Part shown: positions 1,356 to 24,656 of the stretch, in pieces
Numbering within the stretch: the stretch's first letter is position 1
Layout of the letters: each line of letters opens with the position of its first letter
DNA from: a virus
Lineage: Duplodnaviria; Heunggongvirae; Uroviricota; Caudoviricetes
Direction: 5' to 3' (one strand)
Virus record (IMG/VR): IMGVR_UViG_2663762810_000003
Length of the DNA: 30,320 nucleotides
Position numbers and translations under genes: made by a program
Notes under the pieces: model-generated
The model's input: only the letters and a program-made list of their open reading frames with translations
Told to the model about the DNA's origin: nothing
Database searches by the model: none

Positions 1356-1384
1356 ATCATTACCTCAATTTAGCTCAAGTAAGA

Positions 1385-6274: not shown

Positions 6275-9037
6275 ATGACGGCAGAGTACATCAGGGACTG
6301 GCAACAACCGCGCCACGCAGTGGGGCGTGAAGGAACGGGGATCCCCGCTCCTGAATCCGCGCTTTCCTCCTGGCTGGATGCCTACCGGGTAGAGAACGAG
6401 CGCCGCCAGGAAATGGCTGATGCGGCGTTCTCCGCCACGCCGCTGGGCAACCTGATTAATAAAAGCCTGGACGCACAGGAAAAACAGGACAAAACCATCA
6501 CACTGGCAGGAGACGCCAGAAAACAGGCACGCGGCGCGGTGGATGAAGCCATGGCCTCGCTGCGCCTGCTGCCGTCCTATCTGCGCGATCCGCTTATTCG
6601 CCACCTCTCCTTCCTGCGCAAAAAACAGGAAGCCGATCGCCGGAAAGGCAAAAAGAGCTGGCAGGCGGAACGCTATGCACGCGGAACCCTGCGCAAAATA
6701 TTCGAACGTCTGGATAGCACTGACGGACGCTGGCTGACACCGGGTTATCGCTCCCTTGCCGGACGCGAACGCCTGGACGATTTGCTTTACCTGCCGCAGC
6801 TCAACAAACACCAGATACAGACGCTGGCCACCATGACGGCGGCGATGTTCAGCAGCACCTTCGAAAAACTCTGCGATGGCTTTGGCGCGACCGATGGCGA
6901 GCTGACCATGGATGTAACCCTGAAGGCGTATCAGATGCTGGCCCGCATGGCGTTACACCTGCACGCCATGCCTCCACATTATGACGCACTGACAACAGAC
7001 AAAGACCGGAGGAACGAACCGGACACGGAGCTGCTGCCGGGCGCAATCCTTCGCCTGACCTGTGCGGAATGGTGGAAACGCAAACTGTGGCTGTTACGTT
7101 GCGAGTGGAGAGAAGAACAACTCCGCGCCGCCTGTCTGGTTTCCAGAAAAACATCACCCTATCTGAGCCAGGACGCGTTAAGCGAGTTTCGCGCACAGCG
7201 CGAGAAAACACGCGATTTCCTGAAAAGTTTCATGCTGGAAAATGAAGACGGGTTCACGATTGATCTCGAGACAGTGTATTACGCGGGAGTAAGTAACCCG
7301 GTTCACCGTAAGGCAGAAATGATGGCCACCATGAAGGGGTTGGAACTTCTGGCCGAAGCCCGTGGCGACAAAGCGGTGTTTCTGACTGTCACCTGCCCGT
7401 CAAAATACCACGCCACAACGGAGAACGGTCATCCGAATCCCAAATGGAACGGGGCCACAATGCGCGACTCCAGCGATTACCTGGTTAACACGTTTTTTGC
7501 GGCGGTCCGCAAAAAACTGAACCGCGACGGCCTGCGCTGGTATGGCATCCGCACGGTGGAGCCTCATCATGACGGCACCGTGCACTGGCATATGATGGTC
7601 TTTGCACATCCGGAAGAAATCGACACCATTGTGTCCCATACCCGCGATATTGCCATTCAGGAAGACCGCCACGAGCTGGGCAATGATATTACTCCGCGCT
7701 TTAAGGTGGAGTATGTCGACGGCTCAAAAGGCACGCCAACCAGCTACATCGCCACCTACATCGGAAAGAACCTGGACAGCCGCGCCGTGGATGGCATCGA
7801 CCCGAAAACGGGCAAGCCACGCGTGGACCACGAAACCGGAAAATCAATGGCCGAGAGCGTGGAGCGCGCCATCGGCTGGGCGCGCCTTCACCGGGTCCGT
7901 CAGTTCCAGTTCTTTGGCATCCCCTCCCGTCAGGTGTGGCGTGAACTGCGCCGCCTTGCCAGCCAGATGGCACGCAATCCGGAAGGCCCGCAACGGCTGA
8001 AAGATGATGCAATGGATGCGGTACTCGCTGCCGCCGATGCCGGGTGTTTTGCCACCTACATTAAAAAACAGGGTGGCGTGCTTGTTCCACGCAAGGACTA
8101 CCTGATTCGCACCGCCTACGACCTCGCAGATGAGCTGAACGATTACGGCGAACAGAGCGTACAGATTTACGGAATCTGGTCACCACTCATCGGGGAATCC
8201 TCCCGTGTGTGCACGCATCCGGATAACTGGAAGCTGGTAAGACGTAAACCGGAAGCGGAAGACAGCGCCCGCGAAAATGGTTTTGACCTTCAGGGCGGCC
8301 CTGCCGCCCCTTGGACTCGTGGCAATAACTGTCCCCGTGTACAGGAAACAGACAACAACGGGACAGAACAGCCGGAAGAACGGCCAGCACTGTGGCCGCA
8401 GCTTCCTGACGGCGTTGATGTGGATGAATGGATGCGCTCACTGAAACGGCACGAACGCCGGGCGCTGATGCGTTCGCTGCGTGACAAACAGGCAAAAAAC
8501 AGCAGTGATGAAATGCAGAGCTGGACACAGAGCCGCAAACAGCAGCGGCCTTTGCCTGATAACCACGAATTACTCGCTAAAGAATGGCGGGAATCTGCCG
8601 AATCTCTCGGCCTGCATATCGGTGAACAGCAGATGCAGCACCTGTTACGGGGCGGCAGCCTGTACGTTGACGGCAGCATCATTGCACCACAGGGATTTGA
8701 AATTGTACGCAAACCGGATACCCGCCCGGACAGCCGAATCACGCAGCTCTGGCAGCGCCTGAGCCGTAATCACGGCGTAAGCAGCACGGAGATCCGCCAT
8801 AACCCGGTCGCCAGCTATCTGGAACAGCTGGGGGCATCAGACCCCAAAGCCGCCGCACGCCTGGCATCCACACTTCAGCAGGACCAGAACACCATGAAAA
8901 CCCCCGTTACTGTGCTTTCTGACATGCTGCGCGCCATTCACGACACAGAGCACACACAAAGAATCTGTGAAACAACCGAACGCGCCTGCCACAAAGCTGA
9001 CCTACTGCGAAGAGGAGTAAAGAGTGGGAACAAATAA
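6275..9037 (+). CDS. A: replication initiation protein gpA (HUH rolling-circle endonuclease) with a long C-terminal extension
   Basis: 920 aa; HUH motif GTVHWHMMVFAH and paired tyrosines YIATYIGK as in P2 A. Confidence 0.9.
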   Translation: MTAEYIRDWQQPRHAVGREGTGIPAPESALSSWLDAYRVENERRQEMADAAFSATPLGNLINKSLDAQEKQDKTITLAGDARKQARGAVDEAMASLRLLPSYLRDPLIRHLSFLRKKQEADRRKGKKSWQAERYARGTLRKIFERLDSTDGRWLTPGYRSLAGRERLDDLLYLPQLNKHQIQTLATMTAAMFSSTFEKLCDGFGATDGELTMDVTLKAYQMLARMALHLHAMPPHYDALTTDKDRRNEPDTELLPGAILRLTCAEWWKRKLWLLRCEWREEQLRAACLVSRKTSPYLSQDALSEFRAQREKTRDFLKSFMLENEDGFTIDLETVYYAGVSNPVHRKAEMMATMKGLELLAEARGDKAVFLTVTCPSKYHATTENGHPNPKWNGATMRDSSDYLVNTFFAAVRKKLNRDGLRWYGIRTVEPHHDGTVHWHMMVFAHPEEIDTIVSHTRDIAIQEDRHELGNDITPRFKVEYVDGSKGTPTSYIATYIGKNLDSRAVDGIDPKTGKPRVDHETGKSMAESVERAIGWARLHRVRQFQFFGIPSRQVWRELRRLASQMARNPEGPQRLKDDAMDAVLAAADAGCFATYIKKQGGVLVPRKDYLIRTAYDLADELNDYGEQSVQIYGIWSPLIGESSRVCTHPDNWKLVRRKPEAEDSARENGFDLQGGPAAPWTRGNNCPRVQETDNNGTEQPEERPALWPQLPDGVDVDEWMRSLKRHERRALMRSLRDKQAKNSSDEMQSWTQSRKQQRPLPDNHELLAKEWRESAESLGLHIGEQQMQHLLRGGSLYVDGSIIAPQGFEIVRKPDTRPDSRITQLWQRLSRNHGVSSTEIRHNPVASYLEQLGASDPKAAARLASTLQQDQNTMKTPVTVLSDMLRAIHDTEHTQRICETTERACHKADLLRRGVKSGNK

Positions 9038-9257
9038 TCAAAAGAAACGGAGTTTGAAAATCAAATGATAAATAAAAGAAGGATATTCACACAGAACATG
9101 TGTATCTATGAAATGCCAATAAAATTAAATTGGTATGGACCACAAACTATGTAACATAGTGGGCTTAAACAACTTCAAATAATAAAAATAAGTAAAGCCC
9201 TAAGTCCAATCATTTAAGGCTTCAATTATCTTAGTGATTAAATATGACTCACAGTTC

Positions 9258-10622
9258 TTATTTTATAGTCATATTAGCTATTGATGTGGAAATATTAAAG
9301 ATATGGTTATATTCAAACGCAAAATCACCTTCTATACGCTGAACATAACTTCCCTTTTCATTACGTAATAGTTTTAATGTTTCTTTATCGATGTAATAAT
9401 AATCCAATAGTTCTTTAAGCAATTTAATTTCCGTCTTTGATGAAAAATAATCAGATTTTATATTAAGTAATTCTAATATCTCTTCAGAAGACATTTCCTT
9501 CTTAAGTAGTCGATTTAACATATCTGGAGAAGTTACTTTCAAGAAACAAACCAATGCTAATGCAATCATATAATAATTATCATCATTATTCGCTATACAC
9601 GTATGATTATCCACTACAAGCATAGTTGAAATACATCGTTCAACTTCTCGCAGCGAGCAATTATTGGTTTCAATCAAGCATGATAAGACTCTTACAAAAG
9701 CACCATCTGTATTAATACCTAGAGAGTGATTCTGTTGTAGAGTTTTTTTAATATACGTTGTAATCGTTGTTTTGTTAGATGCTTGTAACACCATAGAGTC
9801 ATACACATTTATTTTGGGCAAAGAAAACCAATAATGAATAAATTTATTCAAGTACAGACCAGTATTGATATCACCATATTTATATGCAATTCCCTTTTCA
9901 AATTGCTCTCGATTCATTACCAATAAGAAAACCATACCTTTCACAGAAAAAAGATGCTTAATTTTTTCCAATAGCTCTAGAGAATAATCTGGGCGGGCTC
10001 GATCAAGTTCATCAATAATAATCAAGGTTTTTCTCTTTGTATTTGTATATATTTCTTCTAAAGCTTTTTTAAAGTCAGCAATTGAGTTTTTTTCCTGCTC
10101 CATGGATTTTATTTTCTCTTCAACAAAAGACTCTAACTCACTATTAATGGAATCGCTAACTGTTTTTCCTGCCTCATCAAGAGCAGAACCATTCACAACA
10201 CCTGCTGTCAGGGTTGTAATAGCTACCTTTGCACCTCCGATTAATATTTTTGCACCTATTTTCTTACCAGTTTTAATAATGCGATCAGCTACATCTTCGG
10301 CCTCTACTCCTCTGTGTTTTAGTAAATTATATAGTTCAGATGATATTGAAATAAATGGATCTGATTGATAATCATTTTCAAATGCATCGAAATAAACAAC
10401 ATCTATATATTCACTATTAGTTAATTCTAATTCTGATTTTAACATCTTAACAAATGATGTTTTACCGCTACCCCATATATCATCTAACGCAAAAACCAAA
10501 TTTGAGTCAGGAGCATTAATAATAAGCCGTATCATTTGATCATATAATGTCTTACGATTAAATATGTCAGATGTAATATCAAAACCATTCTCAAAACCAT
10601 TCTGATTAGTAGTTATATTCAT
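9258..10622 (-). CDS. KAP-family P-loop NTPase, solitary cargo in the accessory locus between A and portal Q
   Basis: 454 aa; modified Walker A ALDDIWGSGKTSF; hydrophobic insert AKILIGGAKVAITTLTAGVV; Walker B LIIIDELDRARPDY; gene and flanks are markedly AT-rich. Confidence 0.8.
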   Translation of the reverse strand: MNITTNQNGFENGFDITSDIFNRKTLYDQMIRLIINAPDSNLVFALDDIWGSGKTSFVKMLKSELELTNSEYIDVVYFDAFENDYQSDPFISISSELYNLLKHRGVEAEDVADRIIKTGKKIGAKILIGGAKVAITTLTAGVVNGSALDEAGKTVSDSINSELESFVEEKIKSMEQEKNSIADFKKALEEIYTNTKRKTLIIIDELDRARPDYSLELLEKIKHLFSVKGMVFLLVMNREQFEKGIAYKYGDINTGLYLNKFIHYWFSLPKINVYDSMVLQASNKTTITTYIKKTLQQNHSLGINTDGAFVRVLSCLIETNNCSLREVERCISTMLVVDNHTCIANNDDNYYMIALALVCFLKVTSPDMLNRLLKKEMSSEEILELLNIKSDYFSSKTEIKLLKELLDYYYIDKETLKLLRNEKGSYVQRIEGDFAFEYNHIFNISTSIANMTIK

Positions 10623-11475
10623 AGTAACTCCATTTTTTCCTTATTGAAATTAAATTAGCATTATAAACAAACACTCTCATTAAAAAAGCAAACGAATAAT
10701 AATGATTTATGATATCTTGCTATTTATCTAAAAAATTTGCAATCACAAAAAATCATATAATTAATTAAAGGTTCTTCATGCTGAAAAATAGTTATCAAAT
10801 AGTATATAGTATTGTTTTTAATTGAATGCCATAATAATTACCTTAGTCCTTTAAAACTTCCAACGATGTGGCCCCAGTTATACAGTCACATATCAAGTCC
10901 TGAAACAGTATGCACATCAAATAGGGTTATGAATCTTTTTTCATATCTTGCGATCATTAAAATCTTCTCTGCTACGAGCAAATTTACCATCCGTTCTTTA
11001 CGTAGAAAACAGCACGATACACACTGCACAATAGTGCACAAATTTGCACAATTTTTTTGAACGACTTTTTGCCCTTCCGGCCCGCGTGGCGGCTGGATCC
11101 GTCAGGGATCCGTGCGTGCACAAAAAAACGCGCTTTTTCTGCGCGCAGGTGACGGGGGAACAGCCCGCGTTTCAGGGGGTAAATAGCGTTCCCTTAACGA
11201 TGTCGCAGCGACACGACAGAATGGCCGTATTTCTCACGCTGAGCGTGAAAAATACGTGAGGGATTCTGATTTGATGGGATGAAAGGTAAGGCCGTCAAAA
11301 TCGCACTGAGGCGGCGAGAACATGCAGTCAACGCGGTGGGATTGCGTAAGAGTCTGACCGTCGATGGTGGCGATAAACTGGAAGGCGTCGTGAAATTATC
11401 TGACTGATACAGGAGCTGGAGAGTCGGGGCATAAATTTTTTATGCCCCGGCGAAGCAGCAGACAAGCGAAGCGCG

Positions 11476-12522
11476 TCAGGATGTGGGCTGGATGTCTAAC
11501 AGTGCGTAAGGGTTAAAGCGGATCACCTCTTCGCCAAGCCAGTCATTGATGTGCTTCATGGCCTCCATGACGGGCATCAGCTCGTTAATTGCGTAAACCC
11601 GCGCGGCCTTCTCCACATCACCAAACGCACTTTTTTCACCCGGCATCGCCCCCATCAGTTGCGGCGGAACGCGGTGCGCAGCCAGCACATCATCACGGGA
11701 TGCCGCCTTAACATTCATGAACTCATCCTTTGCGGTGATCTGCTGGAACGGCAAAATTTGCACCCCCTCTTTGCCCCCGTTGGGCGCATGAATGAGCACG
11801 TTTTTAAACGCACCGCCACCACGTGCACCCTGTAGCGTTTCTTTCAGGGAGTCCATGCTTTCGCGGTTTACCTGCGCTGCACCGATGTAGATGATGCACC
11901 CGGCGTGGGATCCGTTGTCGTAATACAGTTTTCTGAACATGTCCGCCGAATGAGACAGGCTGGCCGAGAGTAATGCGCCGAGATATTCCGGCATGCCGTA
12001 GATTTCCTGGTTAATGTCAGGATTCATCAGGTGGCACACTTTGCCAGGGCGAAACTGAAACGCGTCCTTACCATCCTGCACATACCACCATGATTCAAGA
12101 TCGCTTCCGCGTCGCATGTATTTCGCCAGGGCGTGCCGTAATTTAAGCGGTTCGCCGAGCATATTGCTTCGAAGCTCAAGGAATGCGTTACCGAACACAA
12201 ACCAGTCCAGCGCCAGCGCCGAGAAATCCTGCCGGGAAAGCAGCGGGTGCGGAATATAGCAACCGAGCAATACATTGCGCTTAAAGTAAAGCGCAGACTG
12301 ATGCCAGGACGTTTGCCGGGCAGCTCTTGCCAGACCGTACCAGTCCACCGGGGTTTCATACCACCGCCCGTTATCAGCACAGTACATATTGTCCAGCAAA
12401 TCATGCCCGGTCAGGCGATAAGGACCATCAAATGTGAATGCACTGAGCGACGATTCTTTCCTGAGCGCATCAGCGAGATCAATGCGTGAACTCATGCGCA
12501 CTTTTTTATTTTTTCTGCTCAT
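11476..12522 (-). CDS. Q: portal protein gpQ
   Basis: 348 aa, recognised as P2 Q-like; immediately downstream of P on the same strand. Confidence 0.9.
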   Translation of the reverse strand: MSRKNKKVRMSSRIDLADALRKESSLSAFTFDGPYRLTGHDLLDNMYCADNGRWYETPVDWYGLARAARQTSWHQSALYFKRNVLLGCYIPHPLLSRQDFSALALDWFVFGNAFLELRSNMLGEPLKLRHALAKYMRRGSDLESWWYVQDGKDAFQFRPGKVCHLMNPDINQEIYGMPEYLGALLSASLSHSADMFRKLYYDNGSHAGCIIYIGAAQVNRESMDSLKETLQGARGGGAFKNVLIHAPNGGKEGVQILPFQQITAKDEFMNVKAASRDDVLAAHRVPPQLMGAMPGEKSAFGDVEKAARVYAINELMPVMEAMKHINDWLGEEVIRFNPYALLDIQPTS

Positions 12523-14192
12523 CAGAACTCCATAACCGTGAAACGCTCGTTTTCTCCTTCGCCGCCAATCGGTTCGTTAATGACAGCAAGCATGGTTGCC
12601 CACGCAAGGTCGCCGTGGCTGATCCCCCTCGCGCGGTCCGTTTCGTAAGTGATAAAGCCGCCCGGTGTTTTCACCTTACGCACGGCGTTAAAGGCCGCGA
12701 CCAGCTCGCGTTCGGCGCGATCGTATTCCCACCGCCCGGCACGCATTATTTGCAGCATTTTCAGTACCAGCGACCGTTTTGATGACAGCGTGAAGGTGTA
12801 CGGAATAGCAGCAGGGAAAAACCGTTTCACTATCTGATAAACAGCCTCCCCGTTCCCGCCCGTCACATCAATGCCGATGTGTTCCACGTTGTAGCGATAC
12901 GTGAACTCTTCAATGACTCTGGCCTGTTCTTCAAACTCCAGCCCCTGAACGCGTCGCGTCTCCACCGTTCGAAAACGGCCACCAGGAACAGCCGGAGGAA
13001 CCACCACGGACACTGCGCCGCTGTCGCCGTTTCCACTGCTGCCGTTTGCGTCATACCCAATCCATACCGGACGATTCCCCATCGGGCGGGGAGCAAAAGG
13101 TTTCCAGTCTTTCCAGTCGTCGTATCCGTCAACACCGCAGCCAATCAGGATATTCAGGTTAAATGCCGATTCCCCTTCGCGGACAAACTCACACATATAG
13201 AGATTGAGGAACTCGTCTTCGGTGTTTTCATCACGAATTTCGTCGATATCGGTGTGTTTCCAGCCGTGATTAACCACATCTTCCAGCGTGACAATTTGCC
13301 GCCACGTCCGGTCAGGGCAGATAAGCCCGTTATGCAGCGTTTTCCAGTCCACAGAAAAACGCTGGCGTTTATGCGAGGCCTTTTTCTCGTTCCAGCGGTC
13401 GCCGTTCCAGTAGGCGTATGCCTCGTGCGTTTCGGTGGATGGCGTGGAGAAGTAGGTGCGCCGCAGTCCGCTGAGGGTTGCCATAGCGCCAGCCACCTTG
13501 CGCAGTTCAGCAAAGCGACTGACCCAGAAAAATTCATCAAAATAAAAATTGCCCGTATAGGACTGTGCCGACGCAGCAGAAGTGCCGAGAAAATGCAGCT
13601 CTGCGCCGTTGGAGAGGATGATTTTATCGCCCCCTTTCAGCTCCACATCAACTTCAGCCGCGGCCTTCTGAATAATGCTTTTAAACTGGAACGCCTGACG
13701 ACGCGACGCAGACAAAAAAATCTGGTTACGCTGGTAAGGTTGCGCCACATCGTCACGCAGCGCCATCAGCAGTGCTTCCTGTGCAAAATACCAGGTCGCC
13801 CCAATCTGTCGGGATTTCAGGATCATCCTGTTACGTATCCCGGCTTCCCTGCAAAGGGTCAGGGAGTCAAACCAGCCCCGCTGATGCCACTCCAGCCTGC
13901 TGATGATTTTTTCCCGCAGTGCGGCAATCTGTTCCGGCGTGAAATGATTTTTGAGTTTTTTCGCCCGGCCTTTCTTTCCTGCGGCCATCACATCCGGCTG
14001 ACCATCATGCAGCTTTTTAAGCTGCCGGGTCAGCAGGTCTATTTCCTTAAAGTCACCGCCTGTTTTATTCTGTTTTTCAGTAAGCTGGATGAGGCGCGCA
14101 TCGATGGACTGCGTGACACGCTGCACGGGTGGCGTTTCATCCCACTGGTCACGTTTTTTCCACGCATAAATCGTGTTCGGGTTTATTCCCAT
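12522..14192 (-). CDS. P: terminase ATPase (large) subunit gpP, probably 5'-truncated at a rearrangement junction
   Basis: 556 aa against about 590 aa recalled for P2 P; no SD before the first ATG; in-frame stop 12 codons upstream; F-plasmid-like DNA begins within about 10 bp. Confidence 0.85.
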   Translation of the reverse strand: MGINPNTIYAWKKRDQWDETPPVQRVTQSIDARLIQLTEKQNKTGGDFKEIDLLTRQLKKLHDGQPDVMAAGKKGRAKKLKNHFTPEQIAALREKIISRLEWHQRGWFDSLTLCREAGIRNRMILKSRQIGATWYFAQEALLMALRDDVAQPYQRNQIFLSASRRQAFQFKSIIQKAAAEVDVELKGGDKIILSNGAELHFLGTSAASAQSYTGNFYFDEFFWVSRFAELRKVAGAMATLSGLRRTYFSTPSTETHEAYAYWNGDRWNEKKASHKRQRFSVDWKTLHNGLICPDRTWRQIVTLEDVVNHGWKHTDIDEIRDENTEDEFLNLYMCEFVREGESAFNLNILIGCGVDGYDDWKDWKPFAPRPMGNRPVWIGYDANGSSGNGDSGAVSVVVPPAVPGGRFRTVETRRVQGLEFEEQARVIEEFTYRYNVEHIGIDVTGGNGEAVYQIVKRFFPAAIPYTFTLSSKRSLVLKMLQIMRAGRWEYDRAERELVAAFNAVRKVKTPGGFITYETDRARGISHGDLAWATMLAVINEPIGGEGENERFTVMEF

Positions 14193-14201
14193 CAGACGTG
14201 A

Positions 14202-14399
14202 TATTTCTGCGGGCGGATAGAAGCGCAGTCAAAAGCCCTTTCAGCGCGTTTTAACACGGCACTGGAAGCCAGCCTGCAGGCGTGGCAGCAGAAACACCAC
14301 GCAGTCATTCTGGTGTCGCCTGCTGTGGTACAGGGGGCACCGGATATCACCCGGGAAATCCAGCAGGATATTGCCCGGCGAATGAGGGCGGAGCCATGA
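14202..14399 (+). pseudogene. trbI: 3' fragment of an F-type conjugation gene, consistent with trbI (reading frame opens at the junction)
   Basis: Open frame ending ...DITREIQQDIARRMRAEP, with its TGA overlapping the traW ATG (ATGA) as in the F tra operon; identity from memory. Confidence 0.5.
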
Positions 14400-15028
14400 G
14401 ATGCCGGGGGCTGATTGCCCTGCTGATATGGGGGCAGAGTGTGGCCGCCGCCGATCTTGGTACCTGGGGCGATCTGTGGCCGGTAAAGGAGCCGGACATG
14501 CTGACGGTGATCATGCAGCGCCTGACGGCACTGGAGCAGTCCGGTGAGATGGGCCGGAAAATGGATGCCTTTAAGGAGCGGGTGATCCGCAACAGTCTGC
14601 GGCCCCCTGCCGTGCCCGGTATCGGACGCACGGAGAAATACGGCAGCCGGTTGTTTGACCCGTCCGTCAGACTGGCTGCGGATATCCGGGATAACGAAGG
14701 GCGGGTGTTTGCCCGTCAGGGAGAAGTGATGAATCCGCTGCAGTATGTTCCTTTTAACCAGACGCTGTATTTCATCAATGGCGATGATCCGGCGCAGGTG
14801 GCCTGGATGAAACGCCAGACGCCGCCCACACTGGAGAGCAAAATTATCCTCGTGCAGGGCAGTATCCCGGAGATGCAGAAGTCTCTGGACAGCCGTGTTT
14901 ACTTTGACCAGAACGGTGTGCTCTGCCAGCGCCTCGGCATTGATCAGGTCCCGGCACGGGTGAGCGCCGTTCCCGGCGATCGCTTCCTGAAGGTGGAATT
15001 TATTCCGGCAGAGGAGGGCAGAAAATGA
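14396..15028 (+). CDS. traW: F-type conjugative transfer protein TraW (full length)
   Basis: 210 aa starting MRCRGLIALLIWGQSVAAADLGTWGDLWPVKEPDMLTVIMQRL, recognised as F TraW; the track ORF from 14282 is an upstream over-extension. Confidence 0.75.
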   Translation: MRCRGLIALLIWGQSVAAADLGTWGDLWPVKEPDMLTVIMQRLTALEQSGEMGRKMDAFKERVIRNSLRPPAVPGIGRTEKYGSRLFDPSVRLAADIRDNEGRVFARQGEVMNPLQYVPFNQTLYFINGDDPAQVAWMKRQTPPTLESKIILVQGSIPEMQKSLDSRVYFDQNGVLCQRLGIDQVPARVSAVPGDRFLKVEFIPAEEGRK

Positions 15029-15192
15029 AGCGAAGCCTGTGGCTGCTGATGTTATTCCTTCTCGCCGGTCATGTCCCTGCAGCGTCTGCGGATTCTGCCT
15101 GTGAGGGGCGTTTTGTAAACCCGATCACGGATATCTGCTGGAGCTGTATTTTCCCGCTCTCGCTGGGCAGTATCAAAGTCAGTCAGGGTAAC
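15025..15192 (+). pseudogene. traU: 5' fragment of F-type traU (about 56 codons), truncated at the junction back into phage DNA
   Basis: MKRSLWLLMLFLLAGHVPAASADSACEGRFVNPITDICWSCIFPLSLGSIKVSQG matches the recalled TraU N-terminus, then diverges and stops at 15243. Confidence 0.65.
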
Positions 15193-15272
15193 CGAACCCA
15201 CACAGAATATGGCCATCAGCGACATACAGGCGGCGCGCTGTGAGTCGTTCACCATCAGCGAAGGTGGGCGCA

Positions 15273-15803
15273 ATGAGTAATTCACTGTTACCACCATCAG
15301 CCAGCAGTTTCATGCGTTGTGCCGAAGCTGTCGGAACGCGCATTACAGACATCCCGGTAGACCTCAACACGCTGTGGTCGCCGGACACCTGCCCGGTGCA
15401 CCTGCTGCCTTATCTCGCCTGGGCATTTTCCGTTGACCGTTGGGATCGCAACTGGCCGGAAGAGGCAAAACGACAGGTGATTCGTGATGCATGGCTGATA
15501 CACCGACACAAAGGGACCATCAGCGCACTGCGCAGGGCCATTGAGCCGCTGGGATACCTCATTCGCGTGTCTGAGTGGTGGGAGTTCGGCGGAGAACCGG
15601 GAACATTTACCGTTGAAGTCGGCACACTGGACAGTGGCGTGACGGAGGAAATGTATCTGGAAATGGAGCGGTTGATTGCTGATGCCCGTCCGGTCAGCCG
15701 CCACATGACAGGGCTGAATATCATTCAGGAAATTCCGGGGGATATTTTTGCAGCGGCGGCAACTTATGACGGTGAAGTTATTACCATTTATCCGGACGAT
15801 TAA
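15273..15803 (+). CDS. I: baseplate assembly protein gpI
   Basis: 176 aa from the ATG at 15273 (MSNSLLPP...), same length as P2 I; conserved WSPDTCPVHLLPYLAWAFSVDRWD; stop abuts the H start. Confidence 0.85.
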   Translation: MSNSLLPPSASSFMRCAEAVGTRITDIPVDLNTLWSPDTCPVHLLPYLAWAFSVDRWDRNWPEEAKRQVIRDAWLIHRHKGTISALRRAIEPLGYLIRVSEWWEFGGEPGTFTVEVGTLDSGVTEEMYLEMERLIADARPVSRHMTGLNIIQEIPGDIFAAAATYDGEVITIYPDD

Positions 15804-15805
15804 GC

Positions 15806-18034
15806 ATGAGTACCACAACACGAAAATTTAAAACCGTTATCACCGATACAGGTGCCAAAAAATTAGCTCAGGCAGCCGCGCCAGATGGTAAGCCTGTTCG
15901 CCTGACTCATATGTCCGTGGGCGACGGTGGCGGCACGTTGCCCACACCAGACAGTAAGCAGACCCGTCTGGTGCATGAGGTGTGGCGACACACAGTTAAT
16001 CGCGTCATCCTGGACGCAACACATCAGAACCGCATTATTGCGGAGCTGGTTATTCCTCCTGAAACGGGCGGATTCTGGATCCGGGAAATTGGTGTATTTG
16101 ATGAGCACGGCGATTTAATCGCGGTGGGCAATACTGCCGAAAGTTACAAGCCAGCCGTTGCTGAAGGGTCCGGTCGTGCACAAACATTTCGCACCATTCT
16201 GACCGTATCCAGCACGGCCACCGTGGCGCTTACCGTGGATAACACCATGGTGATGGCCACAGTGGATTACGTGGATGACAAACTGAAAGAGCATGAACAG
16301 TCACGACGTCACCCGGACGCCTCGCTGACCGCAAAAGGCTTTGTTCAACTCAGTAGCGCCACTAACAGCGTGTCTGAAACGCAGGCTGCAACGCCGAAAG
16401 CGGTTAAGGCCGCATATGACCTGGCTAACGGAAAATATACCGCTCAGGACGCCACGACGGCACGAAAAGGCCTTGTCCAGCTCAGTAGCGCCACCAACAG
16501 CACGTCTGAAACGCAGGCTGCAACGCCGAAAGCAGTAAAGGCCGCGTATGACCTTGCTAACGCAAAATATACCGCTCAGGACGCCACGACGGCACAAAAA
16601 GGGATAGTCCAGCTCAGTAGTGCCACCAACAGCACGTCTGAAACACTGGCCGCGACATCGAAAGCGGTTAAGGCGGTAATGGATGAAACGAACAAGAAAG
16701 CGCCCTTAAACAGTCCTGCGTTGACCGGAACGCCAACAACGCCAACTGCGCGACAGGGAACGAATAATACCCAAATCGCAAGCACGGCTTTCGTTATGGC
16801 TGCGATTGCCGCCCTTGTAGATTCGTCACCTGACGCACTGAATACGCTGAACGAGTTAGCGGCGGCGCTGGGAAACGACCCGAATTTTGCGACCACCATG
16901 ACTAACGCGCTTGCGGGTAAGCAACCGAAAGATGCCACCCTGACGGCGCTGGCCGGGCTTGCTACTGCGGCAGACAAGTTTCCGTATTTTACGGGGAATG
17001 ATGTCGCCAGCCTGGCAACCCTGACAAAAGTCGGGCGGGATATTCTTGCGAAATCGACCGTTGCCGCCGTTATCGAATACCTCGGTTTACAAGAAACGGT
17101 AAATCAGGCTTCTGGCGCATTACAGAAAAACCAGAACGGCGCAGATATTCCAGGAAAAGATACCTTCACAAAAAATATTGGTGCATGTCGCGCTTTTCAC
17201 AGTGCTATTAGTACAGGGGCAGGGAACTGGACAACGGCACAATTGATTGAATGGCTGGATTCTCAAGGGGCATTCAATCACCCATACTGGATGTGCAAAT
17301 GTTCATGGTCATACGGCAATAATAAAATTATTACCGATACTGGCTGTGGAACTATTCATCTTGCAGGTTGCGTTATTGAGGTTATGGGTAATAAAGGTGC
17401 CATGACCATCCGTGTAACAACACCAAGCACTTCCACCGGAGGCGGCACCACTAACGCTCAATTCACTTATATTAATCATGGTGATGCTTATGCTCCTGGC
17501 TGGCGAAGAGACTACAACACGAAAAACCAGCAGCCTGCATTTGCTTTAGGGCAAACAGGAAGCAGGGTTGCAAATGATAAAGCTGTTGGCTGGAACTGGA
17601 ATAGCGGCGTTTATGATGCAGATATCAGTGGCGCATCGACATTAATCCTCCACTTTAATATGAATGCGGGGAGTTGCCCTGCTGTACAGTTCCGCGTGAA
17701 TTATAAAAACGGCGGTATCTTTTATCGTTCAGCGCGTGATGGTTATGGCTTTGAAGCTAACTGGTCAGAGTTTTACACCACAACCCGCAAACCCTCTGCG
17801 GGGGATGTTGGTGCATATACGCAGGCAGAATGTAACTCAAGGTTTATTACAGGTATTCGCCTGGGCGGTCTGTCATCTGTTCAGACATGGAATGGTCCCG
17901 GCTGGTCTGACAGGTCAGGTTATGTCGTTACAGGTTCAGTTAACGGAAACCGTGATGAATTAATTGATACAACACAGGCAAGGCCAATTCAGTATTGCAT
18001 TAATGGAACGTGGTATAACGCGGGGAGTATTTAA
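15806..18034 (+). CDS. H: tail fibre protein gpH (constant N-terminus plus invertible C-terminal variable part)
   Basis: 742 aa; N-terminus matches the P2 H pattern ([16 protein letters not shown]...HEVWRH...IAELVIPPE); crossover site lies inside the gene at 17070-17095. Confidence 0.9.
16346..16690 (+). repeat. tandem 132-bp (44-aa) repeats, about 2.6 copies, inside H
   Basis: Unit starts at 16346, 16478 and 16610, encoding [44 protein letters not shown]. Confidence 0.8.
17070..17095. other. left 26-bp invertase crossover site (gix/hix-like), TTATCGAATACC-TC-GGTTTACAAGAA
   Basis: Inverted match to the right site at 20129-20154; inverted homology continues inward to about 17152. Confidence 0.6.
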
Positions 18035-18036
18035 TC

Positions 18037-18570
18037 ATGATGCACTTAAAAAACATTACTGCTGGCAATCCTAAAACGAAAGAACAATACCAGCTAACAA
18101 AGCAATTTAACATCAAATGGCTTTATTCAGATGATGGAAAAAACTGGTATGAGGAACAAAAGAACTTTCAGCCTGATACGTTGAAAATGGTCTATGACCG
18201 TAACGGCGTTATTATTTGTATTGAAAAGGATGTTTCAGCAATTAATCCAGAAGGCGCAAGCGTCGTTGAGGTTCCTGATATTACAGCAAATCGCCGGGCT
18301 GATATTTCGGGTAAATGGATGTTCAAAGATGGCGTAGTGGTAAAGCGAACTTATACCGAGGAAGAGCAGAGGCAGCAGGCGGAAAATGAAAAGCAAAGCC
18401 TGCTACAGCTCGTCAGGGATAAAACCCAGCTATGGGACTCACAGCTACGGCTGGGCATCATTTCCGACGAGAATAAACAAAAATTAACCGAGTGGATGCT
18501 CTATGCGCAGAAAGTCGAATCTACAGACACTTCCAGCCTGCCAGTAACGTTTCCCGAACAACCAGAATGA
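18037..18570 (+). CDS. G: tail fibre assembly chaperone gpG
   Basis: 177 aa; immediately after H; homologous to the minus-strand 18598..19125 product. Confidence 0.85.
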
Positions 18571-18597
18571 GGCAAGGCCCGCTATCGGGCCTTAATT

Positions 18598-19125
18598 TTA
18601 CTCTGGTTTTTGTGGCCATTCTGGCTTTGCCGTATCCACACGGCTGACCAGAACACTGTAGCGTTCCCATGCTTCCAGTCGTGTGCGCTCCTCGTCTGTT
18701 GCCATATTCAGCCTGACAGCGCGTTCCAGCGGCTGGATGACTGATTCAGCTTCGGAAAGCAATGCGGCCTTTTGTAATTCGGCCTGTTGTTGCTGTTCGT
18801 CTGCCGTATAAATCCGTTTAACTACAGCTCCATCCTTAAACATCCACTTACCGGAATCATCAGCGCGGCGGTTGGCTGTAATATCGGGAACCTCAACGAC
18901 GCTAAAACCTTCAGGGTTAAGCGTGGAGGCATCTCTAGTGATGGCGACAATAATATTATTTGCATCGTAAACAATCTTTATTGTGTCTGGCTGAAAGTTT
19001 TTCACTTCCTCATACCAGTTTTTTTCGTCCTCGGAGTAAAGCCAGATGACTCCGTGCTTCTTTGTTAACTCATACTGTTCCAGTGTTTTAGCGTTACCCG
19101 CTTTTATGTTCTTTAAGTGCATCAT
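18598..19125 (-). CDS. alternative tail fibre assembly chaperone (G')
   Basis: 175 aa; same MMHLKNI...NWYEE...[13 protein letters not shown]...GKWMFKDG pattern as G with a divergent C-terminus. Confidence 0.85.
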
Positions 19126-19126
19126 A

Positions 19127-20104
19127 TTAAACGCTCGCTACATTATACCAAGTGCCATTTATATACTTTTGAACGGGTCTGTAATAAACGCCCGCTATAT
19201 TATCGGCAGAATTGGACCCTGTATCCTGAACATTAATACCAGACAATACATGACCTGACGGGCACTGGAAATTCCATGTTTGCCAGTTGTTCACTCCATA
19301 ATATTGCTGTGAACCAAGTCGAACATCTTTCACATAACGGGAATCAAAGTTACCGTAATCTGAGGGATTAACACGACCTGTAATATTTATGGTTTTATTA
19401 CTTTGAATACTGCCGGAGACAAAGCGCATAACATGGACGTTATTAGCATAAACATCCAGATACCCGTCGCCATTTTGTTTAAATCCCGTGTCATTATCAC
19501 CCAAAACAATCGAGTTACCACCAAGAGCACTGGATGTTCCGATGCCCAGTGCACCATTCAATTGACCGCCAGATAATGACAACGCCCCAACCTCAGCAGC
19601 AGTCGGTTTAATGTGCGAACTGTAAATTACATATACAGTTCCATCTGTCAGGCCTGTTGGTTTATTCGCTGTATAAGTTGGTGATGTATGAATCGTTACG
19701 CTGGCGTTACTGGTATAATCCCACTGAATATTAACACCTGTGGCGTAATTACCTATTTCAACATAAACATCATAGGTATCACCGGATGTATTCACCCATG
19801 CAAAATTAGTAAATCCAACCGAGGTCCGTCGCCATAATGCACCAGTAATACCTTTTGGATTTCCATTTCCGGCACGCAGAACCAGCTCAGAGATGCCTGC
19901 TTGATGCGGGGAGCCAACGTTAAACCCTGCGCCACCAATCAGGCTTATGTAAACCACGGAACTGGCTTGTGGCATTGTTACAGTTGCCAGTTTGAACCAT
20001 CCTGCACCACCATTAAAAGACATGGTTGTTGAATTTGTTGCTCCAATATTGCGCAGGAATAATCTTTTATCAGGAATATCTGCGCCATTCTGGTTTTTCT
20101 GCAA
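19127..20104 (-). CDS. alternative tail-fibre C-terminal variable segment (Sv'), without its own start; would be expressed after inversion
   Basis: Begins [10 protein letters not shown], the same residues as H around 17130; the frame continues upstream into the inverted repeat. Confidence 0.75.
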
Positions 20105-20128
20105 CGCACCAGAAGCCTGATTTACCGT

Positions 20129-20154
20129 TTCCTGTAAACCGAGGTTTTAGATAA
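20129..20154. other. right 26-bp invertase crossover site, TTCCTGTAAACC-GA-GGTTTTAGATAA
   Basis: Near-identical to the Mu gix-type site as recalled; inverted match to 17070-17095. Confidence 0.6.
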
Positions 20155-20208
20155 TGGCCGTTTCTGACCTGCATGGCATGATTTACGCTTTTGGACGGGA
20201 GATTCAGC

Positions 20209-20796
20209 GTGCTGATTGGCTATGTAAGGGTATCAACAAATGACCAGAATACAGACCTGCAACGAAACGCTCTTGTTTGTGCAGGATGTGAACAAATATT
20301 TGAAGATAAATTAAGCGGGACAAAGACAGACCGACCGGGATTAAAACGCGCTTTAAAGCGTCTTCAAAAAGGTGACACGCTGGTTGTCTGGAAACTGGAT
20401 CGCCTCGGGCGAAGCATGAAACATCTGATTTCTCTCGTCGGGGAACTACGGGAGCGAGGGATTAATTTTCGCAGTCTGACCGACAGCATAGATACATCTT
20501 CTCCAATGGGGCGTTTTTTCTTCCACGTGATGGGTGCCCTGGCTGAAATGGAACGTGAATTAATTGTTGAACGTACACTGGCCGGACTGGCAGCAGCGCG
20601 CGCACGGGGGCGCACAGGCGGACGTCGCCCGAAGCTGACAAAAGAACAGCATGAGCAAATAGCAAGGCTGATTAAAAACGGTCACGACAGAAAACAACTG
20701 GCAATAATTTACGGCATTGGTACATCGACGATTTATCGTTACCACCCCGCAGGAGAATCAAGCGGAACAATAGAGAAGAGTCAGAAAACAAAATAA
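20209..20796 (+). CDS. DNA invertase, serine recombinase of the Gin/Pin/Cin/Hin family
   Basis: Probable GTG start at 20209 (MLIGYVRVSTNDQ); in-frame ATG at 20191 is an alternative; catalytic-Ser N-terminus and C-terminal HTH (GTSTIYRY). Confidence 0.9.
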   Translation: MLIGYVRVSTNDQNTDLQRNALVCAGCEQIFEDKLSGTKTDRPGLKRALKRLQKGDTLVVWKLDRLGRSMKHLISLVGELRERGINFRSLTDSIDTSSPMGRFFFHVMGALAEMERELIVERTLAGLAAARARGRTGGRRPKLTKEQHEQIARLIKNGHDRKQLAIIYGIGTSTIYRYHPAGESSGTIEKSQKTK

Positions 20797-20826
20797 CCGC
20801 TAATCTGACCATTAGCGGTTTTTGTG
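20796..20826 (+). terminator. rho-independent terminator after the invertase (ACCGCTAAT loop ATTAGCGGT, then TTTTTGT)
   Basis: Perfect 9-bp stem followed by a T run, directly after the stop codon. Confidence 0.5.
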
Positions 20827-20831
20827 TTAAA

Positions 20832-21326
20832 TCAGAACAGCCCTTTAACTGAACTGGCCGCGCTGTTAAGAGATGATGTCACCTTATCTTTGAAGCCGGA
20901 CAGCATATCGCTGAACGATGAGGATTGCAGGCGCTCCCGCAAATCCTCATCACAGCGTTCAAGGGTCAGTGAAAATTCTATCTTTTTCGCCTTACCGTAG
21001 CGATCAAACTCGGAACGGGTCGTATTCGTTCCGGTCAGGACATACATGCCGTAAATCTGCCCGACACCATCAATCAGAGGCCAGGGGCGTCCTGTATATG
21101 CCTGCGTGGTCAGCAACGAAAGCGACACTTCGCCACCTGTAATTTCAGGATAAAGCACACCAGAAAGAACGATGCGATCATCGCCTGCCCCGATATACTG
21201 CCAGCTTGCTGAACGGTTAACGCGTTCATTTTTCACATGCCGCCAGCTTTTGTTTTGCTGTAACTGCTGATGCGGCAACGTGCGCAGCTCAAAAACAAAC
21301 ATGCCGTAGATCATCATCATGGCCAT
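20832..21326 (-). CDS. U: tail protein gpU
   Basis: 164 aa, recognised as P2 U-like; immediately downstream of T on the minus strand. Confidence 0.85.
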   Translation of the reverse strand: MAMMMIYGMFVFELRTLPHQQLQQNKSWRHVKNERVNRSASWQYIGAGDDRIVLSGVLYPEITGGEVSLSLLTTQAYTGRPWPLIDGVGQIYGMYVLTGTNTTRSEFDRYGKAKKIEFSLTLERCDEDLRERLQSSSFSDMLSGFKDKVTSSLNSAASSVKGLF

Positions 21327-21332
21327 GACTCC

Positions 21333-24176
21333 TCAATCTTTATCGTAAAAACTGCCACGCCCGGCACGGGCGCGCCGTTCCATTTCTGCCCTGACCATTT
21401 CACCGACCAGTTTCGCCAGTTCGCGGGGATTCTGCGTAACAACGTTATGCAGATGAACATGAATTTCACCACCAAATCCGGAGGCAACAGGCTCCCGGTT
21501 ACGGGAAGTTACAGGAACTGATGCCACTGGAGATCGTATGGCCTCCGCCACCGGGCGGGAGCTGGCCGCAACAACAGGGACCAGCGCCGGAGGCAGCGGA
21601 GCCGGGACCACGGGGGTGATATTAATTGCGGGGGCAGGCTTACTGACCTGCGCAATCTTCCGCTCCTGCCACTCCCCACGAACAGCAAGTGCGCGGGGCA
21701 GGTTCTTAAAGACAATATCGCCGGGGCCAATGCGTTTTTTCGTCTCATCAACCAGCTTACCTGTGTTATCAGCAATTTTGCTGAGTCTGCGCAGCGTACC
21801 GGTATTGCTGTCTGTGAGCGGTTTATTGTCTTTGGGGTTATCACCTCCGGTGCCATTGCCATTTTCCACAGGCTTCGGCGGATTGATTTTCGCCAGGTCC
21901 CCCTGAAGCAAGGCAACCTTGTCCTGAAGAATGGCCGCACGCTGTGCGTCTTCGATTTTCTTGCGCGCCCTTTCCGCTTCATCCGGAAGGACGCCAAGTT
22001 TTTCAAGTATCCACGCCAGCGTATCCAGCAGCATTTTTGCAGGTGTCAGAACAAGCTGTAACGCACCGCCAAGAACGTTACCGAATATCTCGCCAGCACT
22101 GGTACATTTATCCAGCGTTTCCTTGCTGGACTCCATCGGTGACAGCAGCGATTTAAACCAGTTAAACACCTGGCTGATCCCGCTCCCAATTGCGTCAAAA
22201 ACAGGACCAAACCGTTCAAAGGTTTCGCGCAACGGGGTCAGCCTTTCCATAATCCCGCTGAACACCCCGGCAAAAAATGCCCTGATGGGATCCCAGTATT
22301 TCCAGATAAGAACGGCAGCTCCGGCAAGCGCAGCCACGATAAGACCAACCGGACTGAACAGCGCCCCGATAGTGCCTCCCAGCAAAGAAACAGAACCCGT
22401 CACCATTCCCCACAGCGCAGGCAACACCCTGATGACATTCATTGACCGGGTAAGAATGTCGAAACCAAGACGCAAGGTGGCCAGCTTCCCGTAAAGCACC
22501 CCAATAACCAGCGACAACGAGCCAATCGTTGCAGTCATTGCCAGCAACGCACCGCCTGCTATCAGTAGCTGGCGCGTCAGTACCGGATGGGCCTGCGCCA
22601 GCGAGGTGATTTTTTCAAGCACCCGCGTGAGCCACTGCGTGACAGAACGCAGCGGACCGTCAACCAGATCACTGATGCGAATACGAAGACCTTCCCATGC
22701 GCTGTCGAGATTTTTCAGGTCCCCATCAAGATTATCGGCCATTACTTTTGCAACGCGATCGGCCTCTCCCCTTGCCCCCTGCAATTCTCTGGTCAGTTTT
22801 TGCAGCTCTCCTGAACCAGCCGCCGCAACAAGCGTCTGCAAACCAACGAACGCCTCTTCTCCGGCGATGTCCTTGAAGAAGGAGACCTGGTCCACCTGTC
22901 CGTATTTTTGTGTCGCCTTATAGAGATCAAGCAGCACATCCTCCATCGGGCGCATTTTGCCTCTGGCGTCAGCAACTGACACCCCCAGCTCTTTCAGCGC
23001 ATCAGCCGCAGCTTTTGGCGGTGATGCAAGGCGGGACAGACTTGCGCGCATGGCCGTACCAGCATCGCTTCCACGAAGGCCATTATTGGCAAGCATCCCG
23101 GCCATGGCCGCCGCTTCTTCAAGACTGATACCAAGTTTTGCGGCAACCGGACCGGTATACTTCATGGTTTCGCCCAGCGCGCGTAAATCAGTATTGGTCC
23201 GGGTGAATGCCGCTGTCAGCGTATCGCCAACCCGGTCCATTTGATCGGCTGTCAGGTTGAACTGTGTGAGGATATTGGAGCCTATATCCGCCGTCTCGCC
23301 GAGTTCGACGCCACCTGCCAGCGCCATATTAAGAACACCGGGCAATGCGGCCTGAATGGCCTGCGGAGTAAAACCAGCCATTGCCAGAAAGCTCTGCCCA
23401 CTGGCGGCATCACTCGCAGTAAACTGTGTTTCAGAGCCAAGTTTTAACGCCTGCTCACGCAGCGCCTTAAACTGCGGGCTGTTTTTGTCGATTCGCGTCA
23501 GTGCCTGAACACGGGACATCTCTTTGCCGAACCCGATCGCAGGCTGCAAAAAACGCCCGGCAGCATAGCCGCCAGCCGCTGCAGCACCAATTGCCAGCGC
23601 ACCACCTGTTTTCAGTTTTCCCGCGGTTTCCTGCGCGCGCGAATACCGCTCACGCGCCCGCGTTACACGCGCAAGCGCCTGCCGTTCGCGTTCAAGCTGG
23701 TTGTTGTACTGTTCGGTGCGTCTGATGGCCTGCTGGATGGTGTTATCGCTGCCTGTCAGGGAAATGCCGTGGCGTTTCAGCTCTCCGCCAAGTTCCCGCA
23801 TTTTCTGAATTTCCCGTGTGCGCGATTCATTCAGGCGTTCAAGCCGGGTGCTTAACTGCTGCATCAGCTTTTGTTGTTTTTCGCTGAGCACTGTACCCGT
23901 GCGTTGTAACTGATTAAGGGCGTTAAGCTGGCGTCGTGCTTTCACGATACCCGCATCCGCTTTACTGACAGCGTCGCGGGCGAGCTCAAATGAACGCGCC
24001 TGACGCTCGAGATTTTTGATCGCCCCCTGCGTTCGCTGGATGGAGTCACCAAACTGCCCCATCAGGCGGCGGGCGTTTTCGGCAGGCCGGGTCAGCCTGT
24101 CAACGGCGCTGAAAGCGACCCGGATATCAAGAGTCTTCATTGTCTGCACTCCCGCTGCGAAGTGCCGCCCGCTCAC
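21333..24176 (-). CDS. T: tail tape measure protein gpT
   Basis: 947 aa; coiled-coil-rich N-terminus, Gly/Ala-rich hydrophobic middle; follows E/E'. Confidence 0.85.
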   Translation of the reverse strand: MSGRHFAAGVQTMKTLDIRVAFSAVDRLTRPAENARRLMGQFGDSIQRTQGAIKNLERQARSFELARDAVSKADAGIVKARRQLNALNQLQRTGTVLSEKQQKLMQQLSTRLERLNESRTREIQKMRELGGELKRHGISLTGSDNTIQQAIRRTEQYNNQLERERQALARVTRARERYSRAQETAGKLKTGGALAIGAAAAGGYAAGRFLQPAIGFGKEMSRVQALTRIDKNSPQFKALREQALKLGSETQFTASDAASGQSFLAMAGFTPQAIQAALPGVLNMALAGGVELGETADIGSNILTQFNLTADQMDRVGDTLTAAFTRTNTDLRALGETMKYTGPVAAKLGISLEEAAAMAGMLANNGLRGSDAGTAMRASLSRLASPPKAAADALKELGVSVADARGKMRPMEDVLLDLYKATQKYGQVDQVSFFKDIAGEEAFVGLQTLVAAAGSGELQKLTRELQGARGEADRVAKVMADNLDGDLKNLDSAWEGLRIRISDLVDGPLRSVTQWLTRVLEKITSLAQAHPVLTRQLLIAGGALLAMTATIGSLSLVIGVLYGKLATLRLGFDILTRSMNVIRVLPALWGMVTGSVSLLGGTIGALFSPVGLIVAALAGAAVLIWKYWDPIRAFFAGVFSGIMERLTPLRETFERFGPVFDAIGSGISQVFNWFKSLLSPMESSKETLDKCTSAGEIFGNVLGGALQLVLTPAKMLLDTLAWILEKLGVLPDEAERARKKIEDAQRAAILQDKVALLQGDLAKINPPKPVENGNGTGGDNPKDNKPLTDSNTGTLRRLSKIADNTGKLVDETKKRIGPGDIVFKNLPRALAVRGEWQERKIAQVSKPAPAINITPVVPAPLPPALVPVVAASSRPVAEAIRSPVASVPVTSRNREPVASGFGGEIHVHLHNVVTQNPRELAKLVGEMVRAEMERRARAGRGSFYDKD

Positions 24177-24656
24177 GCCAGCTAACCACTTCGCCGGGCG
24201 TCATCATGAAGATTTCGGCGGGCGACCAGTTAAAAATAACGGCAATATCTGCCACAAAGTCTTCTATGTGCTCAAAGCACACAACCGTGATCAGGCTTCC
24301 GTCGCCTGTTCGTTCTTCCCGCCAGAGTCCGCACCGCTCAAAAAATTTACGGCAACCACACATAACTGAATAAAGTCACAGGATGCCATTTTTTTGATCG
24401 TCACTTCATCCAGTCGCGGTGATGTCACGCGTGACAGCAGCGTAAACATGGATTCCGCTTTCAGATTCAGCACATCAGACAGCGACAAATCTCGCAGAGA
24501 TCCAGCCTGCTCAATAGCTCCGGTGATCTCCACATACGTGATTTTTTCGCCGCCTCGCTCAATTGGTTGGGTAAGTTTTACGCCACGCTCACTGGTTTCT
24601 TTCACAGTGTCAGCAACGACCGTGTTTTCGTTATCGATGTTTTTCGTCTCTTTCAT
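24127..24656 (-). CDS. gpE+E' fusion made by programmed -1 frameshift at T-TTT-TTG (plus-strand 24329-24335)
   Basis: E frame reads AAT TTT TTG (N F L); the -1 frame continues K F F E R C G L W..., the 24127..24363 ORF. Confidence 0.6.
24291..24656 (-). CDS. E: tail assembly chaperone gpE
   Basis: 121 aa upstream of T; contains the slippery heptamer near its 3' end. Confidence 0.8.
   Translation of the reverse strand: MKETKNIDNENTVVADTVKETSERGVKLTQPIERGGEKITYVEITGAIEQAGSLRDLSLSDVLNLKAESMFTLLSRVTSPRLDEVTIKKMASCDFIQLCVVAVNFLSGADSGGKNEQATEA

Follow-up and report, generated by a model that had tools for sequence, protein, structure and literature searches.

Breaks in the Escherichia coli chromosome can be closed by alternative end-joining (A-EJ), which is RecA-independent, depends on RecBCD and probably on LigA, and uses 1-9 nt of microhomology (Chayot et al. 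2010, via bioRxiv 10.1101/605246; PMC11297215); in one study, every repair of a Cas9 break had 1-3 nt of microhomology (bioRxiv 10.1101/605246; PMC11297215). Here we describe a 30,320-nt stretch of E. coli chromosome (IMG/VR record IMGVR_UViG_2663762810_000003, hereafter the window) with a P2-like prophage at leuZ, in which a 973-bp piece of the transfer (tra) operon of an IncF plasmid fills the joint of a deletion of ~8 kb. We consider it likely that this structure is a real, strain-specific scar of illegitimate recombination and not a functional module. It resembles A-EJ products in its non-homologous ends, the loss of flanking DNA (8 kb) and the short microhomology (1 and 3 nt), but an ectopic 0.97-kb piece of another replicon lies between the ends.

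Break-induced replication mediated by microhomology (MMBIR), or fork stalling and template switching, was reportedly set out by Hastings et al. in 2009. It shares with the window a deletion combined with a templated insertion and very short homology at each switch, and a defined 3' end that primes on microhomology would fit the fixed endpoint in traU and the TA dinucleotide described below. MMBIR is, however, documented mostly in eukaryotes and in E. coli amplification assays, and the window cannot tell copying from the physical uptake of a fragment. Dupuy et al. (in Nucleic Acids Res in 2018) are said to have found that end-joining in Sinorhizobium captures heterologous DNA at double-strand breaks. 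There, as in the window, foreign DNA was inserted at a repaired chromosomal break, but the capture uses non-homologous end-joining (NHEJ) by Ku and LigD, and E. coli has neither protein. Finally, Hfr formation and sex-factor-affinity loci provide cases in which F DNA is kept in the chromosome after F' excision. Such a chromosomal piece of F offers homology for later plasmid integration, as the segment in the window could; the classical cases are mediated and flanked by insertion sequences (IS), whereas the window has no IS and its 973 bp come from the middle of the tra operon.

Defective prophages of the same family have also lost the module between P/O/N and J/I by short-homology deletion:

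CREC-591 and eight other genomes (at least nine complete genomes): N' joined to 'I, overlap TTA
EC130: P' joined to 'J, overlap AA
FORC_031: O' joined to 'J, imperfect overlap of ~19 nt

These independent deletions indicate that loss of the head-lysis-baseplate module is recurrent. All are direct junctions without foreign DNA, each with different endpoints. The event in the window is of this class as well, though filler DNA was added, and is one more case of a type already known, the microhomology deletion with filler DNA. Natural filler from another replicon at a bacterial deletion joint is what the scar adds, as such DNA is mostly known from laboratory end-joining assays. The scar shows how a P2-like prophage was disarmed and is by itself of modest interest; the added value lies in the coincidence of its right end with a breakpoint that recurs in traU.

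Plasmid DNA at a prophage deletion joint

The prophage has its genes in P2 order (integrase, repressor, replication gene A, portal, terminase, sheath, tube and tape measure, gpU, gpD and ogr, by Pfam and synteny) and is syntenic at 97-99% with prophages of E. coli O145 RM8843 and IHE3034. At the end of the window, ogr is followed by a hok-like gene, the tRNA cluster leuZ-cysT-glyW and pgsA. An earlier note on this DNA had reported F-plasmid tra DNA inside the prophage, and comparison with plasmids confirmed this. In a local alignment, 14219..15191 was identical to plasmid pRHB09-C20_2 (CP057933.1) at 973 of 973 positions. Megablast of positions 14100-15400 against 72,556 plasmids matched 3,743 records, the best being 100.0% identical, and in every plasmid record the tra match spanned query positions 120-1092, i.e. 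14219..15191. The matched records were nearly all conjugative IncF plasmids from Escherichia, Klebsiella, Salmonella and Shigella, and more than 3,400 IncF plasmids had at least 95% identity to the segment. The borders first proposed, 14193..15272, were too wide, by 26 nt of phage DNA at the left end and 81 nt at the right end. The features around the scar are as follows (a slash within a sequence marks a break or joint):

12522..14219, - strand: terminase large subunit gene (gpP), 5'-truncated; Pfam Terminase_5/6N/6C
14219: left joint; phage ...GCGGATA, then GAAGCGCAG... of the plasmid (trbI nt 207), by three-way alignment
14219..15191, + strand: segment of the IncF tra operon, 973 bp, colinear with the phage late-gene direction
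14219..14399, + strand: 3' fragment of trbI, 181 nt or ~60 codons, without start codon; mapped from the plasmid annotation
14396..15028, + strand: intact traW, 210 aa plus stop; ORF list, plasmid annotation and Pfam
15025..15243, + strand: chimeric 72-aa ORF, TraU residues 1-55 and then 17 out-of-frame gpJ codons
15189..15191: right joint; plasmid ...CAGGGTAA, then CCGAACCC... of phage gpJ, with 3 nt (TAA) shared
15192..15280, + strand: 3' remnant of gpJ (baseplate), ~90 nt, last 28 residues (...EPTQNMAISDIQAARCESFTISEGGRNE and stop), overlapping the gpI start
15273..15803, + strand: intact gpI (tail protein I), Pfam Tail_P2_I, the first complete phage gene past the scar

Mapped onto the segment, the annotation of CP057933.1 shows the final 181 nt of trbI, traW in full and the initial 167 nt of traU, which bears out, together with Pfam, the gene content that the note had read from the DNA. 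The trbI fragment matched Pfam TrbI_Ftype with 68 bits over profile positions 52-106 of 106, i.e. the C-terminal half only, and the traW product matched TraW_N with 43.3 bits (cut-off 22.7). The stop/start overlaps at trbI/traW and traW/traU, also described in the note, are ATGA in both cases, the same as in the F tra operon. The divergent 17-codon tail that it saw after the 5' part of traU is the 3' end of gpJ read out of frame: native traU accounts for 167 nt of the chimeric ORF (55 codons plus 2 nt), and the ORF stops with TGA at 15241-15243. A complete pilus-building transfer operon is absent, with trbI and traU truncated and no further tra gene in the window. All of the genes involved, F trbI, traW and traU as well as those of the P2-like prophage, are already known.

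The joints were read from a three-way alignment of the window, the intact phage and the plasmid, and the BLASTN comparison with IncF plasmids and search for microhomology that the note had suggested gave full identity and microhomologies of 1 nt and 3 nt. On the left, phage GCGGATA/ACCCTG and plasmid CTGTCA/GAAGCG gave GCGGATAGAAGCG in the window, with 1 nt (A) shared; on the right, phage GAGATAA/CCGAACCC and plasmid CAGGGTAA/GGTCC gave CAGGGTAACCGAACCC, where the parents have 3 nt (TAA) in common. From 15189 on, beginning with the last ~90 nt of gpJ, the sequence is again that of the phage; the changes to phage DNA of 97-100% identity are sharp at both 14219 and 15189. Four reference phages lack the C found at 15192, but this base is a natural phage variant: it was present in 5 of 120 P2-like contigs in IMG/VR, two of which are 99.9% identical to the right flank of the window and have an intact gpJ. 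With neither terminal inverted repeats at 14219/15191, nor a target duplication, nor an IS or transposase ORF in the window, insertion of a transposon or IS was not supported. The structure is not a transposon and not an integrated plasmid and, on present evidence, not a functional traW module. Microhomologies of 1 nt and 3 nt together with a flanking loss of ~8 kb fall within what end-joining or template switching produces (0-9 nt of microhomology, with flanking loss). Chi-guided trimming by RecBCD was rejected, as there are zero Chi sites in the segment, its plasmid flanks and the deleted phage interval.

The note had also stated that canonical P2 carries genes O through J at this place, and alignment to intact P2-like genomes, which it proposed as a check, showed that they are missing and sized the deletion at 7,850-8,059 bp: 15021-23079 of the IHE3034 prophage (8,059 bp) and 17425-25274 of the O145 RM8843 prophage (7,850 bp). 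The missing stretch starts at gpP codon 18, takes in O-N-M-L-X-lysis-R-S-V-W and stops within J, of which the final ~90 nt are kept. Hence the head/lysis/baseplate module of a P2-like prophage (O N M L X Y K lysis R S V W J) is lacking, with the GPO scaffold, major capsid, small terminase, head completion, X, holin, endolysin, Rz-like, R, S, V and W genes absent. In P2, the divergent P/O late promoters and the V promoter sit in the DNA deleted here, which would leave P-Q and I-H-G without late promoters. Judged by its gene content, the prophage should be unable to build heads or baseplates or to lyse the cell, which supports the defect assumed in the note.

The segment does lie between the terminase and gpI, as the note had it, but not at an intact terminase start, since gpP is truncated by 18 codons, and not directly before gpI, since the gpJ remnant precedes it. 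gpP is 100% identical to the IHE3034 prophage up to 14219 (IHE3034 15020; the full gene reaches 15074) and has lost 54 nt (18 codons) at its start together with the P/O intergenic region upstream. The longest ATG-initiated gpP ORF is 12522..14192 (556 aa), whose ATG at 14192 is the internal Met28; positions 14193-14218 are still terminase DNA. The exact 556-aa terminase in other assemblies was considered as the same truncation and rejected, since the phages there are intact and their gene was called from an alternative start. In GenBank, the truncated terminase is called as 12522-14228 (- strand, 568 aa) with a CTG start; this start lies within plasmid-derived DNA, so that the annotated N-terminus is chimeric.

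An exact lookup of the chimeric 72-aa TraU'-J' protein in 153 billion gene positions returned two records only, GenBank JXWI01000001.1 (GCA_000948905.1, a 536-kb contig) and a 16.5-kb Logan contig of SRR1783866. Both contigs are base-identical to the window through both joints. Elsewhere, the segment was found at 2,858 places in plasmids versus 35 in chromosomes among 5,426 complete E. coli genomes, and phage and tra DNA were adjacent in 0 of these 5,426 genomes, in line with the view of the note that conjugative-plasmid DNA at a prophage deletion junction is unusual. Searched as exact patterns, both joints gave 0 matches in IMG/VR, the GTDB species representatives and the JGI metagenomes.

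A recurrent breakpoint in traU

On its plasmid side, the right joint is at traU nt 166/167. Clustered at 90% identity, the chimeric protein grouped with two further TraU fragments that likewise diverge after residue 55. Among short proteins with an F-type TraU N-terminus, returned by two database searches, the chimeric TraU ORFs broke at codon 55/56 in 24-25 distinct cluster representatives, at codon 102/103 (GGTGA/AC) in 7-8 and elsewhere in at most 2 each; the peak at 55 persists even with the second query (TraU 1-120), for which breaks at this residue rank low. At the DNA level, direct junctions from traU nt 166 were found in three unrelated plasmid families:

traU+166 to traD+1280 (L140-143): 91 collection blocks, including complete plasmid CP020496.1
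traU+166 to traX+219 (L144-146): 158 blocks
traU+166 to traN+1577 (L147-148): 9 contigs

Two more junctions (L152 and L153), into the RepFII region and trbF, are suggested by contig gene calls only. The 18 tails that could be mapped all lie downstream in the tra operon in the same orientation, with targets at traU+694, several traN sites, trbB, traQ, traG, traT, traD, traI, traX and the region past finO. TA stands in register with T165-A166 in 14 of these 18 partners, and TA(A) is also present at the phage gpJ site; beyond the TA, the partner sites showed only a preference for C following it. This amounts to about 24 independent tra-operon deletions with a left endpoint fixed at traU nt 166. 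A deletion hot spot at traU+166 in F-like plasmids is probable, though not established, and the right plasmid breakpoint of the scar was probably not random. A literature search on the record accessions and on the traU hot spot found no published mention.

A fixed left end, variable downstream partners and a 2-nt terminal homology are together the pattern expected of a defined 3' end at ...CAGGGTA. Such an end, arising from a nick, a run-off or a pause, could prime on the 2-nt (TA) homology. We therefore offer, as a tentative proposal, that traU nt 166 (CAGGGTA/AGG) and, more weakly, ~307 (GGTGA/AC) may be site-specific fragile points, whose defined 3'-OH, possibly linked to the relaxase or to conjugative processing, would drive one-sided deletions of distal tra DNA and occasionally seed transfer from plasmid to chromosome. 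If true, the fragile point would account for widespread lineages, such as the pAA-like plasmids and the traU-traD deletion plasmids. A real traU breakpoint would explain why many IncF tra deletions start at one base; as tra deletions mean lost self-transmissibility, this bears on the epidemiology of plasmids for resistance and virulence. A specific DNA end, if real, would also connect plasmid decay with plasmid-to-chromosome gene flow.

Several other causes of the fixed endpoint were considered. Deletions promoted by the IS-excision-enhancer (IEE) in pathogenic E. coli join, by microhomology, a fixed endpoint at the end of an IS to a variable one (PMC9943667). The fixed-left, variable-right pattern at traU+166 resembles them, but no IS was present at traU+166 in any junction or chimeric ORF examined. 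An IS as the fixed endpoint was rejected on the same grounds, as none of the ~25 chimeric ORFs had an IS-derived tail and the junctions examined were direct, although contigs ending at traU+164/165 exist and weaken this exclusion. An unusual hairpin at the traU site was rejected with folding z-scores of +0.8 and -0.6. The site has some likeness to the TraI nic site (GGGTAA/GGTCC versus GGGTGT/GGTGC in nic, 8 of 11 positions), but 74 + strand sites in the 35-kb tra region score equally and the inferred 3' end is out of register by 1 nt. For a serine-recombinase pseudo-site, such as one of the prophage's own Hin/Cin-type invertase, no dyad was common to 14 aligned partner sites. As for the central dinucleotide of such an enzyme, 14 of 18 plasmid deletions and the right joint have TA in register; the left joint shares only A. 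Protein P0003, which has the TraU55-NRT start in common with the chimeric protein, was rejected as a second case of the window joint: its tail is out-of-frame traI, i.e. a plasmid-internal deletion at the traU site.

A group II intron reverse transcriptase (RVT_1, GIIM, HNH) was observed at 12-1286 of L145, in the traK region of a pAA-like contig with the traU+166-to-traX deletion.

Origin of the scar and rival explanations

The parents, joints and microhomologies of the scar are seen directly, as is the net result: 0.97 kb of trbI'-traW-traU' has taken the place of ~8 kb (O to J). The event may have started with the repair of a break or a collapsed replication fork in the prophage late region. 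A chromosomal 3' end at gpP codon 18 (...GCGGATA) would then have been joined to an IncF plasmid at trbI nt 207 with 1 nt shared, ~971 nt of the plasmid would have been copied or carried along as far as traU nt 166/167, and the plasmid 3' end (...CAGGGTA[A]) would have been joined to TA(A) in the gpJ 3' end. The mechanism could be of the MMBIR type, with two replicative template switches, or alternative end-joining of the RecBCD/LigA type that captured a linear plasmid fragment; both yield the same product and the sequence does not separate them. We favour a single complex event of this kind over integration of a plasmid followed by several deletions, because it needs fewer rare steps and neither an intermediate nor plasmid backbone is left.

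The stepwise alternative is that a whole IncF plasmid integrated in the late region, in the manner of an Hfr or a cointegrate, and that later deletions took out phage O-J and nearly all of the plasmid, leaving the 973-bp remnant much like a classical sex-factor-affinity locus. F-type DNA does occur in E. coli chromosomes, with 35 chromosomal places found for the segment among the 5,426 genomes. Repeated microhomology deletions erode P2-like prophages as well as the tra operon, and a deletion that ran from traU+166 out into gpJ would not differ in kind from those inside plasmids. However, this course requires three or more independent rare events, as against a single complex one. In addition, the window retains no IS, plasmid backbone or second plasmid-chromosome joint, and no intermediate relative was found in the complete E. 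coli genomes, IMG/VR, the GTDB representatives or the JGI metagenomes. We consider this course of events unlikely.

A chimeric contig was the worry raised by the note: plasmid and prophage reads could have been joined during assembly or library preparation, with the real prophage intact or simply deleted. The source is indeed a draft short-read assembly, and the structure is seen in one isolate only. Nevertheless, two assemblers gave base-identical sequence through both joints. The two records are either the same isolate passed through two assembly programs or two isolates, and either case argues against a chimera made by an assembler; reproduction of the joint in an independent assembly largely answers the concern. 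Moreover, a contig from a k-mer graph crosses the joints only when the junction k-mers are the dominant path, an artefact would need two precise chimeric joints in the same orientation, 973 bp apart and each with an overlap of at most 3 nt, and the right joint coincides with a breakpoint that complete plasmids show independently, which is not expected of an artefact. An artefact thus seems very improbable.

Least credible, with hardly any chance of being right, is that the segment is selected cargo in which TraW or the TraU signal-peptide fragment benefits the host and might interfere with or complement incoming F-like plasmids: traW is intact, 100% identical to plasmid alleles and oriented like the phage late genes, but TraW acts only with its F partners, the + strand upstream of traW showed no sigma-70-like promoter, the phage late promoters able to read into it are deleted (by the operon structure of P2), the 100% identity indicates recent arrival rather than conservation, and the structure is confined to one isolate.

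In the favoured reading, traW is probably silent, and no function of the segment is evident. The 973 bp of perfect homology could act as a RecA target for incoming IncF plasmids.

Several points weigh against a single illegitimate event with a plasmid end at a traU hot spot. A microhomology of 1 nt is at chance level, and the joints cannot tell end-joining from template switching; by our own calculation for random joints, (k+1)(1/4)^k(3/4)^2, at least 3 nt of microhomology is expected in ~5%. The phage breakpoints (parental sites 14213-14219 and 15186-15195) share the 7-nt GATAACC in register, for which a single event has no role; random site pairs with the same register freedom share at least 7 nt in register with a probability of 0.003 (simulated, and post hoc). 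The simple-deletion ancestor that GATAACC suggests, GCGGATAACCGAACCC, gave 0 matches in IMG/VR, the GTDB representatives and the JGI metagenomes, and no two-piece match to it was present among the complete E. coli genomes. A site-specific nuclease at GATAACC was rejected, as the motif is also found in retained parts of the prophage. Furthermore, the evidence consists of assemblies and not reads, so that an oddity of the library or culture would be possible if the two records share one read set. The donor plasmid was not seen either: the GenBank and Logan contigs pass unbroken through the 973 bp, whereas a second identical copy with other flanks would normally break them, which suggests that no such copy, and no resident donor plasmid, was in the sequenced culture. 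Lastly, the traU counts are database matches at the ORF level with imperfectly known sampling.

A perfect 13-nt inverted repeat was noticed between terminase DNA at 14130-14142 (TGGCGTTTCATCC) and traW at 14805-14817 (GGATGAAACGCCA). Its chance expectation is ~0.01 by a rough estimate, and it has no role in the single-event model.

Other features of the prophage

Between replication gene A and portal gene Q, a slot at 9010-11024 contains a gene for a KAP-family P-loop NTPase (9258-10622, - strand, 454 aa, Pfam 132 bits); in relatives the slot holds ParM/StbB or other genes. This slot has been reported as a hot spot for anti-phage systems in P2-like phages (bioRxiv 10.1101/2021.01.21.427644). 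The tail-fibre and assembly segment (17066-19186 and 20191-20796) is inverted relative to the O145 RM8843 prophage and adjoins a gene for a Hin/Cin-type serine invertase; it is an invertible host-range switch in the opposite orientation. Between the integrase and the repressor, 1008-2035 (- strand) encodes a DUF2511 protein (115 aa) and a 216-aa protein without a significant family match. Both genes are also conserved in the prophage of RM8843 and may be lysogenic-conversion genes.

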